Source: a virus. From it: a stretch of 64,000 nucleotides of DNA. The stretch spans positions 1 to 64,000 of the IMG/VR virus record IMGVR_UViG_3300021961_010439. The stretch is one strand, 5' to 3'. Every line of letters begins with the position of its first letter. Position 1 is the stretch's first letter. The notes beneath the pieces are model-generated. The model did not search any database. It was not told where the DNA came from and worked only from the letters and a program-made list of their open reading frames with translations. Shown piece after piece: positions 59,881 through 63,972 of this stretch. Made by a program: the position numbers and the translations under genes.

Positions 59881-60129
59881 CTACTTTTGCATAAGATTAT
59901 TGTATAATAGAAGAGTTACTATGCCGCCGGTTACTCCCATAAAAATACCAGATGGACTAAGACTATCATATGTTCCGAGCATATATAAAATGGCCCCGCC
60001 CATATAAGAGCCTGCTACTCCAAGAGCAACAGTTTGAAAAAAGCCAAGTCTTAAATTAACAGGAACAATTGCTTTGGCTAATGAGCCAACAAATAAACCA
60101 TAAACTACCCATACTAAAAGACTAAACAT
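59881..60129 (-). CDS. GlsB/YeaQ/YmgE (transglycosylase-associated) membrane protein
   Basis: 'WVVYGLFVGSLAKAIVP...TVALGVAGSYMGG...GGIVTLLLY'; three hydrophobic helices. Confidence 0.85.
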   Translation of the reverse strand: MFSLLVWVVYGLFVGSLAKAIVPVNLRLGFFQTVALGVAGSYMGGAILYMLGTYDSLSPSGIFMGVTGGIVTLLLYNNLMQK

Positions 60130-60511
60130 TGGTTGCCTCCAGAAGTGTTAAAGATTCTTCGTCATTTAGATTCTTACCAACTTCCATGATGGCGTTTTTA
60201 AGACTAACTCCATATTCTTTGTATTGTTGTTTACTAAGGTGTTGTTTAATTATTCTATTTAATCTATAATTATTCAACCAATTGTCTTTGATGGTTAAAT
60301 TAACTATAGTATGACGTAGATCAAGAGCTTCGCTCATTTTATCATTCTTTCTTCTTTTACTTCGGCACTCTTGTATAACGCGAATAAGACTAAGAATAAC
60401 TCCAATAACAATTATGATAGTTATAGGGTCAAATCCATGATTTTCATTTTTAATATTAGCTTTGGTAATAATTTTTTGTGCTAAATTTGATAACTTAGGA
60501 TCTATTGTCAT
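60122..60511 (-). CDS. Single-TM membrane protein
   Basis: 'FDPITIIIVIGVILSLI' followed by a basic RSKRRK stretch. Confidence 0.65.
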   Translation of the reverse strand: MTIDPKLSNLAQKIITKANIKNENHGFDPITIIIVIGVILSLIRVIQECRSKRRKNDKMSEALDLRHTIVNLTIKDNWLNNYRLNRIIKQHLSKQQYKEYGVSLKNAIMEVGKNLNDEESLTLLEATNV

Positions 60512-60520
60512 AAAAATCTC

Positions 60521-60757
60521 CTATTTTTCTGGAACACAATATCCACAATCAACCATTTTAATTCCATCTCCACTCAAATATTGACCAGTTCCTTTACATA
60601 CTGGACATTCTTTTCTTTTATACTTTTTACTAGGTTCATTTCCAATATTTTTTACTACCGATCCTGCCACAATTACAGGAGCTAATGATCCTCCATCATA
60701 TCTATGTGAACTAAAAAATAAAGATACTATTAAAAGTGGTAAAATTAATTTATTCAT
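60521..60757 (-). CDS. Signal-peptide protein with a DnaJ-type Zn finger
   Basis: 'MNKLILPLLIVSLFF' N-terminus; 'CPVCKGTG...CGYC'. Confidence 0.7.
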   Translation of the reverse strand: MNKLILPLLIVSLFFSSHRYDGGSLAPVIVAGSVVKNIGNEPSKKYKRKECPVCKGTGQYLSGDGIKMVDCGYCVPEK

Positions 60758-60924
60758 TTTTTGCCTCTAGGAAATAATTTTTTTCGTTTTAGAGGAGGTG
60801 TAGGAATTATAGGAGTATTATCTGTGTCTGTTTTTATGGGTGTTATCAGTTTTATAACAGATAGGATAAATGAAAGTATAATAGATATTAGTCTATTGAG
60901 CGCTAATTTATCAAGAAATCTCAT
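60754..60924 (-). CDS. 56-aa membrane protein, absent from the ORF track
   Basis: MRFLDKLALNRLISIILSFILSVIKLITPIKTDTDNTPIIPTPPLKRKKLFPRGKK; ATGA overlap with the next gene. Confidence 0.65.
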   Translation of the reverse strand: MRFLDKLALNRLISIILSFILSVIKLITPIKTDTDNTPIIPTPPLKRKKLFPRGKK

Positions 60925-60931
60925 AGTTTTC

Positions 60932-61861
60932 TCATCTTTCTAAATAGTCAAAACCATAATTTGGTAATTTTTGTAATGGAAAACCGTCGAAGTCACTGAA
61001 AGCATATGCTCCGTTACCCTTTAACATTCCGGCAGCAACATCTGCTTTAATTAAAAATGACCCGTCAGGAATCGGTCCCCACGCTGGGTGACCGCCATCA
61101 TTCCATTTACCCCAACTATTCTGTACGAGAAAAGCTGGTTCACTACCAGTATCGTCGCAAGCAATCCATGCCATAGCATGAGCCCACGATCCTTGTGGTT
61201 TTGCAAATCCTTTACTATCTCTTTTACTGCTAAATCCATAACTACTACAAACACTAATACCATATCCATTAGCTAAAGCATCTCGTGCTTCTTCTACTGT
61301 TCTAATAAGACTTACTGTTTTAACTTGGTGATCATTAGCTAGATCAATAACTTTATCTGGTAGTCCACGACCTCCCCATCCAGCACCTAACATTCCTTGA
61401 TATTTAGTTAAGTCTACAACTCCTTTATAATTTTTTCTAACTAGTACTCCTCCAAATCTACTAACAAATTCTGCGGCTCTTGCACAACTCATACCTTGAC
61501 CACCATGACCCCTAGCGCCATATATGGCTTCTGTCGCTCCTCTTGCTGTCCAACTTTCTTTATTCGTATGAACATCTATTTCTACTGCTCTTGTAATATC
61601 AACAGCGTTTCGTGTACTATGTGAAACACAGTCTCCAGTAACTTGTCTTTCATTATAAGGATTCTTATCAAACTTTAATACGCTTTTGTATGGAGCTGAT
61701 AATTTACCCTTACCAGTTCCAGTTATTTTTTTTGCACCATCTCCAAAGTAAGCATATTTAGAATTTTCTAATAAACTTTCAAATACATGTTCTTCCCATA
61801 AACATCCTTTAAATCCGTCTTTATAAAGTTTTAATAGCTGATCTGGAGAAAATTTAGACAT
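60932..61861 (-). CDS. Papain-family (C1) cysteine peptidase
   Basis: 'QVTGDC' (Cys78), 'WAHAM' (His228), 'QNSWG' (Asn248); no signal peptide. Confidence 0.85.
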   Translation of the reverse strand: MSKFSPDQLLKLYKDGFKGCLWEEHVFESLLENSKYAYFGDGAKKITGTGKGKLSAPYKSVLKFDKNPYNERQVTGDCVSHSTRNAVDITRAVEIDVHTNKESWTARGATEAIYGARGHGGQGMSCARAAEFVSRFGGVLVRKNYKGVVDLTKYQGMLGAGWGGRGLPDKVIDLANDHQVKTVSLIRTVEEARDALANGYGISVCSSYGFSSKRDSKGFAKPQGSWAHAMAWIACDDTGSEPAFLVQNSWGKWNDGGHPAWGPIPDGSFLIKADVAAGMLKGNGAYAFSDFDGFPLQKLPNYGFDYLER

Positions 61862-62355
61862 TATTTGCTACCTTCATAAAATGCCCATGATAAACCATTA
61901 AAAACTTCAACAGCTTTTTTCCTTAAATTTTGATCTAGTACAACATTATCGTCACCAATATAGTTAATAACAGCGCTATTAGTTACATTAGCTAATTCCG
62001 GATATTTACCTTTAAGGTCCAAATTATATAGTAGTCCTGCGAGTCTATTAGAGTCTCGTATTTCATCTGTATTTTTTATAACTTGATTAGTTTCGTCTAA
62101 ACTAATTAGTTTAGCTAAATCAGAATATAAAGAACTTAATTTAACGCCATCAACAACCCTGTCAGAACTACCATTTTTTAGAACATCTATTATTTTTTCA
62201 CAATCTTTTCTAAGATTAGGATCTAATGGACTTTCTACTACAACAGATGTGATTGGAGTTGGGTTGATTGTTGGTTTAATAACTGGACCAATAACACCAT
62301 ATGCTACCAATAGTCCACCAATAACTAGCAATATTACATTAGTATATTTATTCAC
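61861..62355 (-). CDS. Helical protein with an N-terminal membrane anchor
   Basis: GGAG RBS plus GTG at 62355; TM 'VILLVIGGLLVAYGVIG' followed by a Pro/Thr linker. Confidence 0.65.
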   Translation of the reverse strand: MNKYTNVILLVIGGLLVAYGVIGPVIKPTINPTPITSVVVESPLDPNLRKDCEKIIDVLKNGSSDRVVDGVKLSSLYSDLAKLISLDETNQVIKNTDEIRDSNRLAGLLYNLDLKGKYPELANVTNSAVINYIGDDNVVLDQNLRKKAVEVFNGLSWAFYEGSK

Positions 62356-62708: not shown

Positions 62709-62719
62709 AACCTATCCTT

Positions 62720-63151
62720 TCAGAGTATATAATTTTGTTGAACAACTAATTTGGGTTTAAAAATTCCTGCCTCTCTAAAAATTTTGACCATACTATCTAT
62801 GGTGGAACCAGCTAATATCATTAAAAAGCTTTTAACATAAGAATGTATGTATCCCTCTATTATGGATGGAACAAAAGGGATGTCAACAACCAAAAATAAG
62901 CTATCATAGAATTTACTAATCATACTCATAGCTAAAGCTTTTTTCTCTGGACTACTTAAATCATTTCCAATAATTTCTATTATTTGTATAATACTAGCTA
63001 TTGCTAGCTGTAAAAGTTTCCATGCTTGATCAACTGCAAATCGTTTAACATCCTTGAAAGACGATTTAGTTGTTTGTATTAGTTTTTCTACTTCTTTTAC
63101 TATTAGTTCTTGGCTTGTTGTTTTTTCTGGCTGGTTGTCGTTTTGGCTCAT
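62720..63151 (-). CDS. Amphipathic helical protein
   Basis: AGGAG RBS supports the start MSQND at 63151; overlaps the upstream gene by 86 nt. Confidence 0.6.
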   Translation of the reverse strand: MSQNDNQPEKTTSQELIVKEVEKLIQTTKSSFKDVKRFAVDQAWKLLQLAIASIIQIIEIIGNDLSSPEKKALAMSMISKFYDSLFLVVDIPFVPSIIEGYIHSYVKSFLMILAGSTIDSMVKIFREAGIFKPKLVVQQNYIL

Positions 63152-63416
63152 TTTTCTTCTCCTTTTTAACTTCTGGTTCTTTTGATTCTTCCACAATCGT
63201 TGTATTTATTTTAGCAGTTTTTCTAGCATTAATATACTTATATAGTATTACAAATTGTCCACCAATAAGAATACAACTTTCAACAGCATGACTAACTACG
63301 CTGATAAGTTCTTCTTTATTTGAGTGATCATTAATAATACCAGTTAAATATAATCCACTAAATATAAAACTAACTAAAGTAAACCAAAATTCACTTGTTC
63401 TATAACCAGGTTTCAT
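63066..63416 (-). CDS. Holin-like two-TM protein
   Basis: 'MKPGYRTSEFW' N-terminus, two hydrophobic helices and a highly charged basic tail; GGAG RBS. Confidence 0.55.
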   Translation of the reverse strand: MKPGYRTSEFWFTLVSFIFSGLYLTGIINDHSNKEELISVVSHAVESCILIGGQFVILYKYINARKTAKINTTIVEESKEPEVKKEKKNEPKRQPARKNNKPRTNSKRSRKTNTNN

Positions 63417-63432
63417 ATTTATCTCCAATTAT

Positions 63433-63648
63433 TTATGATATATAGCCAGAACCTTGAACCCCATTACCATAGTAGTAACTAGGATCATCAAATCTGTCTG
63501 TATATTTTGCTTGTATATCTGTTATGACAGGAGTATTTTTTACATAAGTATTTAATGTGTTATAATAACCAGTAAATGTTGTTGTAGTAATAGTTGTACC
63601 ATTTTTTATAGCATTAGCGCTAATAGCTTTTGCAATATCATTTGCCAT
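63433..63648 (-). CDS. Hypothetical protein
   Basis: Co-oriented 71-aa ORF, Thr/Tyr-rich. Confidence 0.55.
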   Translation of the reverse strand: MANDIAKAISANAIKNGTTITTTTFTGYYNTLNTYVKNTPVITDIQAKYTDRFDDPSYYYGNGVQGSGYIS

Positions 63649-63651
63649 ATA

Positions 63652-63972
63652 CTATGCCCTTTCTATTCTTTCTTCTAGTGCTTCTAGTGTTTTACCCAAT
63701 GTAACTAGTTGTATTTTAAGTTCGTTCATTACTTCTGTATTTCTTTGTAATGCAGAAGCGAATGCTGCTTGACTTTCTTTGTTAGCAGCTAATCTTTCCA
63801 TAATGAATTGTCTATCTTGAGAATATGGACTTTGAGTCTCAATCATGTGTAAGACATCACTTTTGCTAGCCATATTCCGACCAATGGTTACCCAAAATCC
63901 TATCATTGTTACTATAATTCCAACTAATGCAGTAGCCAAACTTTGCCAGAAATGAATGATAGTTTCACCCAT
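63652..63972 (-). CDS. Protein with an N-terminal TM helix and a coiled coil
   Basis: TM 'LATALVGIIVTMIGFWVTIG'; heptad-repeat C-terminus. Confidence 0.65.
   Translation of the reverse strand: MGETIIHFWQSLATALVGIIVTMIGFWVTIGRNMASKSDVLHMIETQSPYSQDRQFIMERLAANKESQAAFASALQRNTEVMNELKIQLVTLGKTLEALEERIERA

Follow-up and report, generated by a model that had tools for sequence, protein, structure and literature searches.

A conserved block of membrane-protein genes around a papain-fold cysteine peptidase in uncultured aquatic tailed phages: a candidate egress module

Tailed phages are thought to need a muralytic endolysin, and endolysins are usually variable. Among large DNA viruses, the viral cathepsins (for example V-cath of baculoviruses) are virus-encoded C1 peptidases that serve release by destroying host structure. 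A clan CA cysteine peptidase forms the endolysin domain CHAPK of LysK (PMC4126393), PeiW and PeiP are phage pseudomurein endoisopeptidases as cited in PMC10318531, and PMC6281302 lists the Transgly_assoc family (GlsB/YeaQ/YmgE) under TC 1.E.43 as putative holins without a known function. Here we describe a block of 11 open reading frames (ORFs) at positions 59881–63972 of a 64,000-nucleotide (nt) stretch of viral DNA (positions 1 to 64,000 of IMG/VR record IMGVR_UViG_3300021961_010439, hereafter the window), in which a cysteine peptidase with a papain fold is surrounded by small membrane and exported proteins. We read this block, with a probability of about 0.5, as an envelope-directed egress (lysis-type) module of a large uncultured clade of aquatic tailed phages.

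The peptidase and its gene block

The 309-amino-acid (aa) protein encoded at 60932–61861 is, by its alignment and predicted structure, a genuine papain-fold peptidase. It was missed by Pfam, PHROGs, and single-sequence PDB searches; PF00112 gave no match to it at an E value of 0.1 or less, and on one of its relatives reached 19.5 bits against a cut-off of 20.7. A family profile from an alignment of 46 homologues (32–52% identity) matched caricain and cathepsins in PDB with an E value of 1.7e-5. Because the PF00112 threshold is missed and yet the family profile matches C1 chains, we regard these proteins as a divergent C1-like family rather than as plain PF00112 members. All 46 sequences have C78, H228, and W250, and at least 90% of them have Q73, N248, and S249. 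The AlphaFold2 (AF2) model built from the alignment has a predicted local distance difference test score (pLDDT) of 94.4 and was used instead of the single-sequence model (pLDDT 33.6). All top Foldseek matches of this model are C1 enzymes (best E value 1.7e-8; xylellain 3OIS and procathepsins), and comparison by VIA gave Z 21.1 with a root-mean-square deviation of 2.9 Å over 232 residues for xylellain 3OIS and Z 16.8–19 for papain and procathepsins (papain 16.8). Hidden Markov models (HMMs) of CHAP and NlpC/P60 did not match the peptidase, whose nearest folds are the C1 enzymes. Viral cathepsin-type proteins are among the structural matches, and among predicted viral structures the model resembles C1-like domains of proteins which, to go by their names only, are PG-binding-like, muramidase, and Lysin A. 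In the VIA alignments mature papains start at model residue ~49–51 and pro-forms at residue 3–5, so residues 1 to ~49 would replace the C-terminal part of the propeptide; these aligned ranges, and only these, suggest that the enzyme is latent.

More than 2,200 homologues of the peptidase were collected in a word-indexed search of metagenome proteins, the best 120 of them having 77–95% identity and a length of 305–309 aa, and an exhaustive search resulted in 1,451 clusters at 50% identity, mostly viral. No match was obtained when three members of the family were run by tblastn against the 50,697 deposited phage genomes. The samples that hold the phage or its close kin are estuary, lake, river, aquaculture, and drinking-water metagenomes, as well as a viral-fraction metagenome, and the phages of this aquatic clade have genomes of 130–230 kb and occur in thousands of metagenome copies. 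About a third of the 150 best representative clusters matched the peptidase in split form, with one break site immediately preceding C78, one around residue 110, one behind H228, and one behind NSWG-x-W. Intein-related domains, placed at the catalytic motifs, were present in each of the six split-match members examined (P0121, P0123, P0131, P0159, P0184, and P0246): five have intein splicing or Hint domains together with LAGLIDADG, and P0159 has LAGLIDADG only. Inteins mark conserved, indispensable genes and do not indicate function, and to our knowledge it is unusual for a protease to have one at its catalytic Cys.

The 11 ORFs of the block are all on the minus strand, arranged head to tail with overlaps or gaps of a few bases. 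They are given below from the 5' end of the block, where TM stands for transmembrane and the fractions are occurrences in a synteny sample of 43 IMG/VR loci whose flanks reach 4.5 kb or more in either direction.

63652..63972, minus strand: 106-aa protein, N-terminal TM segment and then a coiled coil, i-spanin-like topology; peripheral, 33/43 loci
63433..63648, minus strand: 71-aa soluble protein, no TM segment; 32/43 loci
63066..63416, minus strand: holin-like 116-aa protein, two TM segments and a long, very basic C-terminal tail; first core gene, 43/43 loci
62720..63151, minus strand: helical protein of ~143 aa, borderline hydrophobic or amphipathic helices, no Pfam or PHROG family; 43/43 loci
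62352..62708, minus strand: 118-aa single-pass membrane protein, one TM segment; 43/43 loci
61861..62355, minus strand: "171-aa" partner, ~164 aa from the revised start, N-terminal TM anchor; 43/43 loci
60932..61861, minus strand: papain-fold (C1-like) cysteine peptidase, 309 aa, no signal peptide, Q73, C78, H228, and N248
60754..60924, minus strand: 56-aa protein, one TM segment and a basic tail; variable member at an insertion hot spot, 28/43 loci
60521..60757, minus strand: 78-aa exported or anchored protein, short signal-like h-region and then CxxCxGxG...CxxC; 43/43 loci
60122..60511, minus strand: 129-aa single-pass membrane protein, one TM segment; 43/43 loci
59881..60129, minus strand: 82-aa GlsB/YeaQ/YmgE (Transgly_assoc) membrane protein, two or three TM segments; last core gene, 43/43 loci

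The ~143-aa helical protein probably starts at the ATG at 63151 and not at the TTG at 63196 of the listed 158-aa ORF; the start of the holin-like gene is probably the ATG at 63416 (listed ORF 63066–63428), and that of the 171-aa gene probably the GTG at 62355, residue 8 of the listed ORF 61861–62376. A Kyte-Doolittle scan with a 19-residue window found TM-grade segments in eight of the 11 products (one borderline) and a signal-like h-region in a ninth, and neither a TM nor a signal segment in the 63433–63648 product and the peptidase. These counts agree with an earlier note made from the sequence alone, which had described 11 tightly packed genes, at least eight with TM or signal segments, around a signal-less papain-family peptidase with an intact triad. 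The triad is borne out by the invariant C78 and H228, by N248 at 90% or more, and by the papain fold of the AF2 model, and the GlsB/YeaQ/YmgE member named in that note passes the curated cut-off of PF04226 (27 bits vs. 25.3).

The 171-aa partner adjoins the peptidase upstream, its stop overlapping the peptidase start. Behind its anchor come a linker rich in Pro and Thr and then a C-terminal domain that is well conserved and has WACNEGSK as its last residues, and the alignment of the protein has 17 invariant columns; profile and sequence searches found no relative in PDB, and a protein atlas gave no usable match. The 78-aa protein has a DnaJ-type zinc-finger-like motif and matches phrog_12574 (E value 3.9e-5), and the two-TM protein of the window has 24 invariant positions among its first 70 residues. 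At the periphery, the 106-aa TM/coiled-coil protein matches phrog_1009, a family without known function, weakly, and its gene lies at a variable distance from the core among the loci. The 71-aa protein resembles the N-terminus of a 441-aa structural-block protein of the relative G001 (35% identity over 57 aa; G001 96596–96760) and may be a detached adaptor or decoy of that virion protein, to judge from this similarity.

Eight genes form a core that is present in the same order and on the same strand in all 43 loci, namely the genes for the two-TM basic-tailed protein, three anchored or helical proteins, the peptidase, the CxxCxGxG protein, the 129-aa TM protein, and the GlsB/YeaQ protein; the synteny of the cassette is thus kept throughout the sample. 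The block has two insertion hot spots, one upstream of the core and one directly 3' of the peptidase, where 139 to 2485 nt separate it from the following core gene in the 43 loci. Genes of other kinds stand at both sites in the two relatives used for comparison, G001 (131 kb, 90% complete) and G008 (186.8 kb with terminal repeats): a 766-aa fibre-like gene (107460–109760) lies between the first two block genes of G008, upstream of the core, and directly after the peptidase G001 encodes a 471-aa protein with Mtd_N and FGE-sulfatase (C-type-lectin-like) domains (L083:2507–3922), which resembles the target of a diversity-generating retroelement. The peptidase is 91% identical to that of G001, and the subunits of ribonucleotide reductase (RNR) are 89–92% identical; the most conserved neighbors are the 106-aa TM protein (76%) and the GlsB-type protein (66%).

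The linkage extends to deeper relatives, which are phage contigs binned into metagenome-assembled genomes (MAGs) with a peptidase of 51–55% identity (L095 and L096) that is still flanked by membrane and exported partners. In L095 three bases lie between the end of a gene for a 70-aa two-TM protein and the peptidase. The gene that follows, at the position of the window's 78-aa protein, encodes an exported protein in which a Cys-rich motif similar to the one in the window's zinc-finger product is combined with a WCGPC thioredoxin domain (Thioredoxin_2, E value 1.4e-10). A homologue of the 171-aa partner is present in L095 by tblastn, and at a locus of 59% identity (L094) homologues of both the 171-aa and the 129-aa proteins lie beside the peptidase by the same method; in L095 and L096 a 113–116-aa single-pass TM protein takes the place of the 129-aa protein, a likeness seen by eye only. 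The 62-aa two-TM block protein of L096 matches four PHROG holin families (best E value 1e-4). By BLASTP and hhalign the window's two-TM protein has no similarity to those of L095 and L096, and to judge from these comparisons the holin-like slot seems to be filled by unrelated proteins, which is common in lysis cassettes. That a signal-less enzyme is kept beside holin-like, anchored, and exported redox proteins over such divergence argues for a role at the envelope. Related-locus searches with single distant members returned only three short loci. The gene that precedes the two-TM protein and the peptidase in L095 (7194–7769) encodes an N-anchored protein with a weak PAS/DUF7950 match, on the strength of which it could be a sensor linked to the module.

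The window also encodes a 729-aa paralogue of the peptidase (56184–58373, minus strand) with 45% identity over the His/Asn half. It has Ser for Cys at the nucleophile position (DCVSHS vs. YHSIAN), keeps the His and the NSWG motif, and carries large insertions and a C-terminal extension; the paralogue has no Pfam family. Eighty other loci, with flanks of 6–10 kb, match it over ~15% only, and the match is their own peptidase gene.

Genome context and the search for another lysin

The window covers the first 64 kb of an IMG/VR viral contig of 79,637 bp, which is 56% complete (CheckV) and has a G+C content of ~31%. In a map of the clade made from the contig, G001, and G008, the terminase, portal, tail fibers, and giant proteins share one arm, and the opposite-strand arm runs from many small genes through auxiliary genes to a sigma factor gene (contig 67203–67775), a ClpP-like gene that is separate from the papain-type peptidase (contig 65362–66033, assigned by eye), a DeoC-like gene, and the block, 3' of which lie dCMP deaminase, RNR, PhoH, and replication genes. 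The terminase and portal of G008 are at 12–16 kb and its peptidase at 105 kb, on opposite strands. A PDB search with the 190-aa protein upstream gave no match. Past the end of the window, contig 74805–79185 (L103) holds a row of genes for a subtilase, a trypsin-like protease, an actin-like ATPase, and a Tat-signal DUF1501 protein, and the contig as a whole encodes at least five proteases, the ClpP-like one included, of four catalytic types.

The search for another lysin used six-frame HMM analysis with 15 Pfam lysin families (Phage_lysozyme, Amidase_2, Amidase_3, SLT, GH25, GH19, GH108, CHAP, NlpC/P60, M23, VanY, M15_3, M15_4, Hydrolase_2, and Glucosaminidase) and, as a sixteenth, the binding-only PG_binding_1, and no match over threshold was obtained anywhere in the 79.6-kb contig. 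For 13 of the lysin families the result was equally negative in seven relatives of at least 90% completeness, one of which has terminal repeats, and M23 and M15_4, covered in three of these relatives, had no match there. Positive controls worked for most families but not for GH19 and GH108, whose negative results weigh little. The absence of a muramidase or amidase, first noticed in the window, therefore holds for the whole contig, and neither the contig nor the seven relatives yielded a canonical endolysin. Pfam and PHROG scans of 67 ORFs of G001 likewise gave no lysin among the families listed (25 of 29 and 25 of 50, respectively). Phage_lysozyme matches were obtained in two MAGs that hold related phage contigs; they lie on other contigs and could not be linked to the phage. 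The one signal in the HMM searches came from a 924-aa tail-fiber protein of G001 (102150–104924; L088:2150–4924), which contains a sub-threshold NlpC/P60-like stretch (14 bits, E value 0.0035) that, if real, is possibly a virion-borne wall peptidase for entry.

The first block gene is preceded by a gap of 115 nt beyond the window end that holds a G+C-rich hairpin (contig 64039–64055) and a TGGTGTAT motif (contig 64010–64017), both upstream of the 63652–63972 gene. Of all 7-mers upstream of ORFs, GGTGTAT shows the strongest enrichment in G000 as well as in G001, and four of its five copies in G000 and seven of 14 in G001 lie 90 nt or less upstream of a start. In the form TGGTGTAT(A/C)T the motif occurs 17–57 nt upstream of start codons at window 40150–40157 and contig 64010–64017 and 70559–70566 as well as in G001 and G008. 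The gene that follows the portal has it upstream, as have several further structural genes. Its sequence and placement make it probably a phage promoter, perhaps read with the phage's own sigma factor, and as far as such a signal can show it the block is a unit of its own that shares the signal with structural genes. Scans for sigma-70-type promoters and for terminators stayed at chance level in this AT-rich DNA, and Shine-Dalgarno-like motifs are enriched upstream of genes. In the freshwater RNA library X20 short, near-identical contigs lie over the peptidase, zinc-finger, and holin-like genes, with DNA carry-over possible; the library has only short contigs, and uncovered parts and depth are uninformative.

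Homologues of the peptidase were also found on chromosomes of Pirellulales MAGs (L099, L100, L101, L102, and L117–L120) with 44–48% identity, one with 32%. A homologue occurs in seven of 101 sampled genomes of the order of one Pirellulales MAG, a sporadic distribution that looks like acquisition from phages. In at least the two copies in MAG STL-PLA32 (L099 and L101) a conserved ORF of 72–81 aa precedes the homologue. The earlier note had offered bacteria of the Planctomycetes-Verrucomicrobia-Chlamydiae group as an example of a suitable host. The Tat-DUF1501 gene in the phage contig and the Pirellulales homologues point loosely and indirectly to a host in the Planctomycetes, and against such a host stands the mismatch in G+C content, 31–34% in the phages vs. 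56–67% in the genomes with the homologues. The window has no tRNA genes and thus gives no host hint from that side.

Readings of the block

In the reading that we prefer, an envelope-directed egress module, the papain-fold peptidase would be made in the cytoplasm without a signal peptide and would probably be latent, with its first ~49 residues as a substitute for a zymogen propeptide. When infection ends, the two-TM basic-tailed protein, the GlsB/YeaQ-type protein, or both would permeabilize the inner membrane and so let the peptidase into the periplasm. There the N-anchored partners, together with the exported Cys-rich protein (thioredoxin in relatives), might position it or keep its thiol active. 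It would then cut peptide bonds that hold the envelope together, be it in peptidoglycan stems or crosslinks, in a tether between wall and outer membrane, or in surface-layer proteins. Because the block of relatives holds a PHROG-holin-like gene and an exported thioredoxin, the signal-less peptidase is tied to the envelope. The earlier proposal of a non-canonical lysis system stands insofar as the module is real and conserved, its peptidase is intact, no canonical endolysin is found, and the relatives have these holin-like and thioredoxin genes; its interpretation as a whole is supported in part, and a lysis function remains a proposal. In a stronger and more tentative version, which we hold at clearly less than even odds, the papain-type peptidase would be the sole lysin of the clade and a new class of endolysin, latent through its propeptide, let through the membrane by a holin-like protein, and then, in the periplasm, activated or maintained in reduced form by exported thioredoxin or zinc-finger partners. 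Its target in that version would be the wall peptides or a protein layer of a host envelope that glycosidases alone do not open.

Several observations weigh against an egress module. The two-TM protein of the window matches no family and no holin in Pfam and PHROGs, and no ORF with a lipobox is encoded on either strand of 59800–64100, which confirms the reported lack of a lipoprotein o-spanin and leaves the i-spanin-like topology of the 63652–63972 product as the only spanin-like trait of the block. The peptidase has ~80% identity where most neighbors have 36–65% and is on par with RNR, its family carries inteins as core enzymes do, and the block lies in the long minus-strand arm between sigma/ClpP and dCMP deaminase/RNR/PhoH/replication genes, opposite the structural arm. 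Because it is as conserved as RNR, carries inteins, and sits in the nucleotide-metabolism/replication arm, the peptidase is poorly fitted to be an ordinary endolysin. The TGGTGTAT motif precedes PhoH and a few early-arm genes of G008 in addition to structural genes, and so does not fix the timing of the block. The chromosomal homologue in L099, the sole locus with annotated neighbors, lies beside gatA/gatB, an esterase, and a desaturase, and tblastn found no membrane partners near the Pirellulales homologues in four loci. We know of no C1-family peptidase that cuts peptidoglycan and found no paper linking Peptidase_C1 to an endolysin, and a new muralytic fold is possible among the many unannotated ORFs.

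Such a fold is what the first of two main alternatives, a rather unlikely one, would need, in which the peptidase is accessory to lysis: another gene would encode a still unrecognized muralytic enzyme, either as the product of an unannotated ORF or as one domain within a giant virion protein, and the peptidase would handle another layer (outer-membrane tethers or a surface protein layer, as a spanin substitute) or process its membrane partners. The block has no spanin pair, so that some outer-layer function is unaccounted for, and C1 peptidases are generally known to cut ordinary L-peptide bonds. Space for a second enzyme is given by the majority of clade ORFs, which have no family assigned, and by the weak NlpC/P60 match in the G001 fiber, but no candidate for it was found: the lysin families are absent from the near-complete relatives to the extent given above (13 in all seven, M23 and M15_4 in three), and PDB sequence searches with the two giant proteins of the window returned no relative. 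We think it unlikely that the block has nothing to do with lysis and that the peptidase acts in the cytoplasm on a conserved host or phage protein (takeover, defense evasion, or processing) next to membrane proteins that serve, for example, superinfection exclusion. A clade with such a peptidase would be left without any lysis enzyme, and the synteny with exported and membrane proteins, a PHROG-holin-like gene, and a thioredoxin down to 51% identity is hard to explain without coupling to the envelope, even if the lack of a signal peptide, the suitability of a reducing compartment for a cysteine peptidase, the extreme conservation and inteins shared with core enzymes, the location among nucleotide-metabolism and replication genes, and the Pirellulales homologues without membrane partners all favor it. 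Very improbable, and rejected on position and fold, is a protease for virion or prohead maturation. High conservation is what core virion-assembly genes have, fibre-like genes are repeatedly inserted in the block, and the 71-aa product resembles the N-terminus of a structural-block protein; the peptidase, however, is ~90–110 kb from terminase and portal on the opposite strand, its fold is papain-like and not HK97/assemblin-like or ClpP-like, and the contig has the separate ClpP-like gene assigned by eye.

What is new here is the synteny of the eight-gene core, its linkage in deep relatives, the absence of lysins in relatives, the propeptide-like N-terminus, the inteins, and the Pirellulales homologues. 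In a widespread clade of 130–230 kb phages without a known lysin family, what is conserved is a papain-type protease in fixed linkage with holin-like and exported redox proteins. Should this protease be the lysin, it would bring a new endolysin chemistry with a logic of latency and redox control and a new class of wall- or envelope-degrading enzymes; otherwise the clade would harbor a muralytic fold not yet recognized, and the conserved protease would serve an equally unstudied purpose. The family, which forms ~1450 clusters at the 50% identity level and has no member among 50,697 deposited phage genomes, marks a large blank in phage biology.

Relation to known systems

The phage peptidase has its fold in common with xylellain of Xylella fastidiosa (PDB 3OIS), papain, caricain, cathepsins B, K, and L, and Der p 1. 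With C1A peptidases and their zymogens it shares the same Gln/Cys/His/Asn residues, the NSWG motif, and a short N-terminal pro-like segment, and it differs from them in having 11–20% identity, below the PF00112 threshold, no signal peptide, a fixed place in a block of membrane-protein genes, and inteins in many members. The viral cathepsins differ from it in that they belong to eukaryotic hosts and are proenzymes of the secretory pathway without holin-type partners. CHAP, NlpC/P60, and PeiW/PeiP are thiol peptidases with a papain-like core that cut wall peptides, and they demonstrate that a Cys-His enzyme can be a lysin; the phage peptidase is of a different family, and its nearest folds are C1. 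The last core gene matches PF04226 of the GlsB/YeaQ/YmgE family (TC 1.E.43), whose holin role is itself putative (PMC6281302).

Among lysis cassettes the comparison is with the lambda S-R-Rz/Rz1 type. The block is likewise tight, with a small two-TM protein that has a charged C-terminal tail, a signal-less enzyme, and an N-anchored coiled-coil protein, and relatives of the block have PHROG holin matches. In contrast to the lambda type, the enzyme is papain-type and not a glycosidase, an amidase, or a known peptidoglycan peptidase, an o-spanin lipoprotein is lacking, and the block comprises 8–11 genes, includes exported redox-type proteins, and lies in the non-structural arm of the genome.

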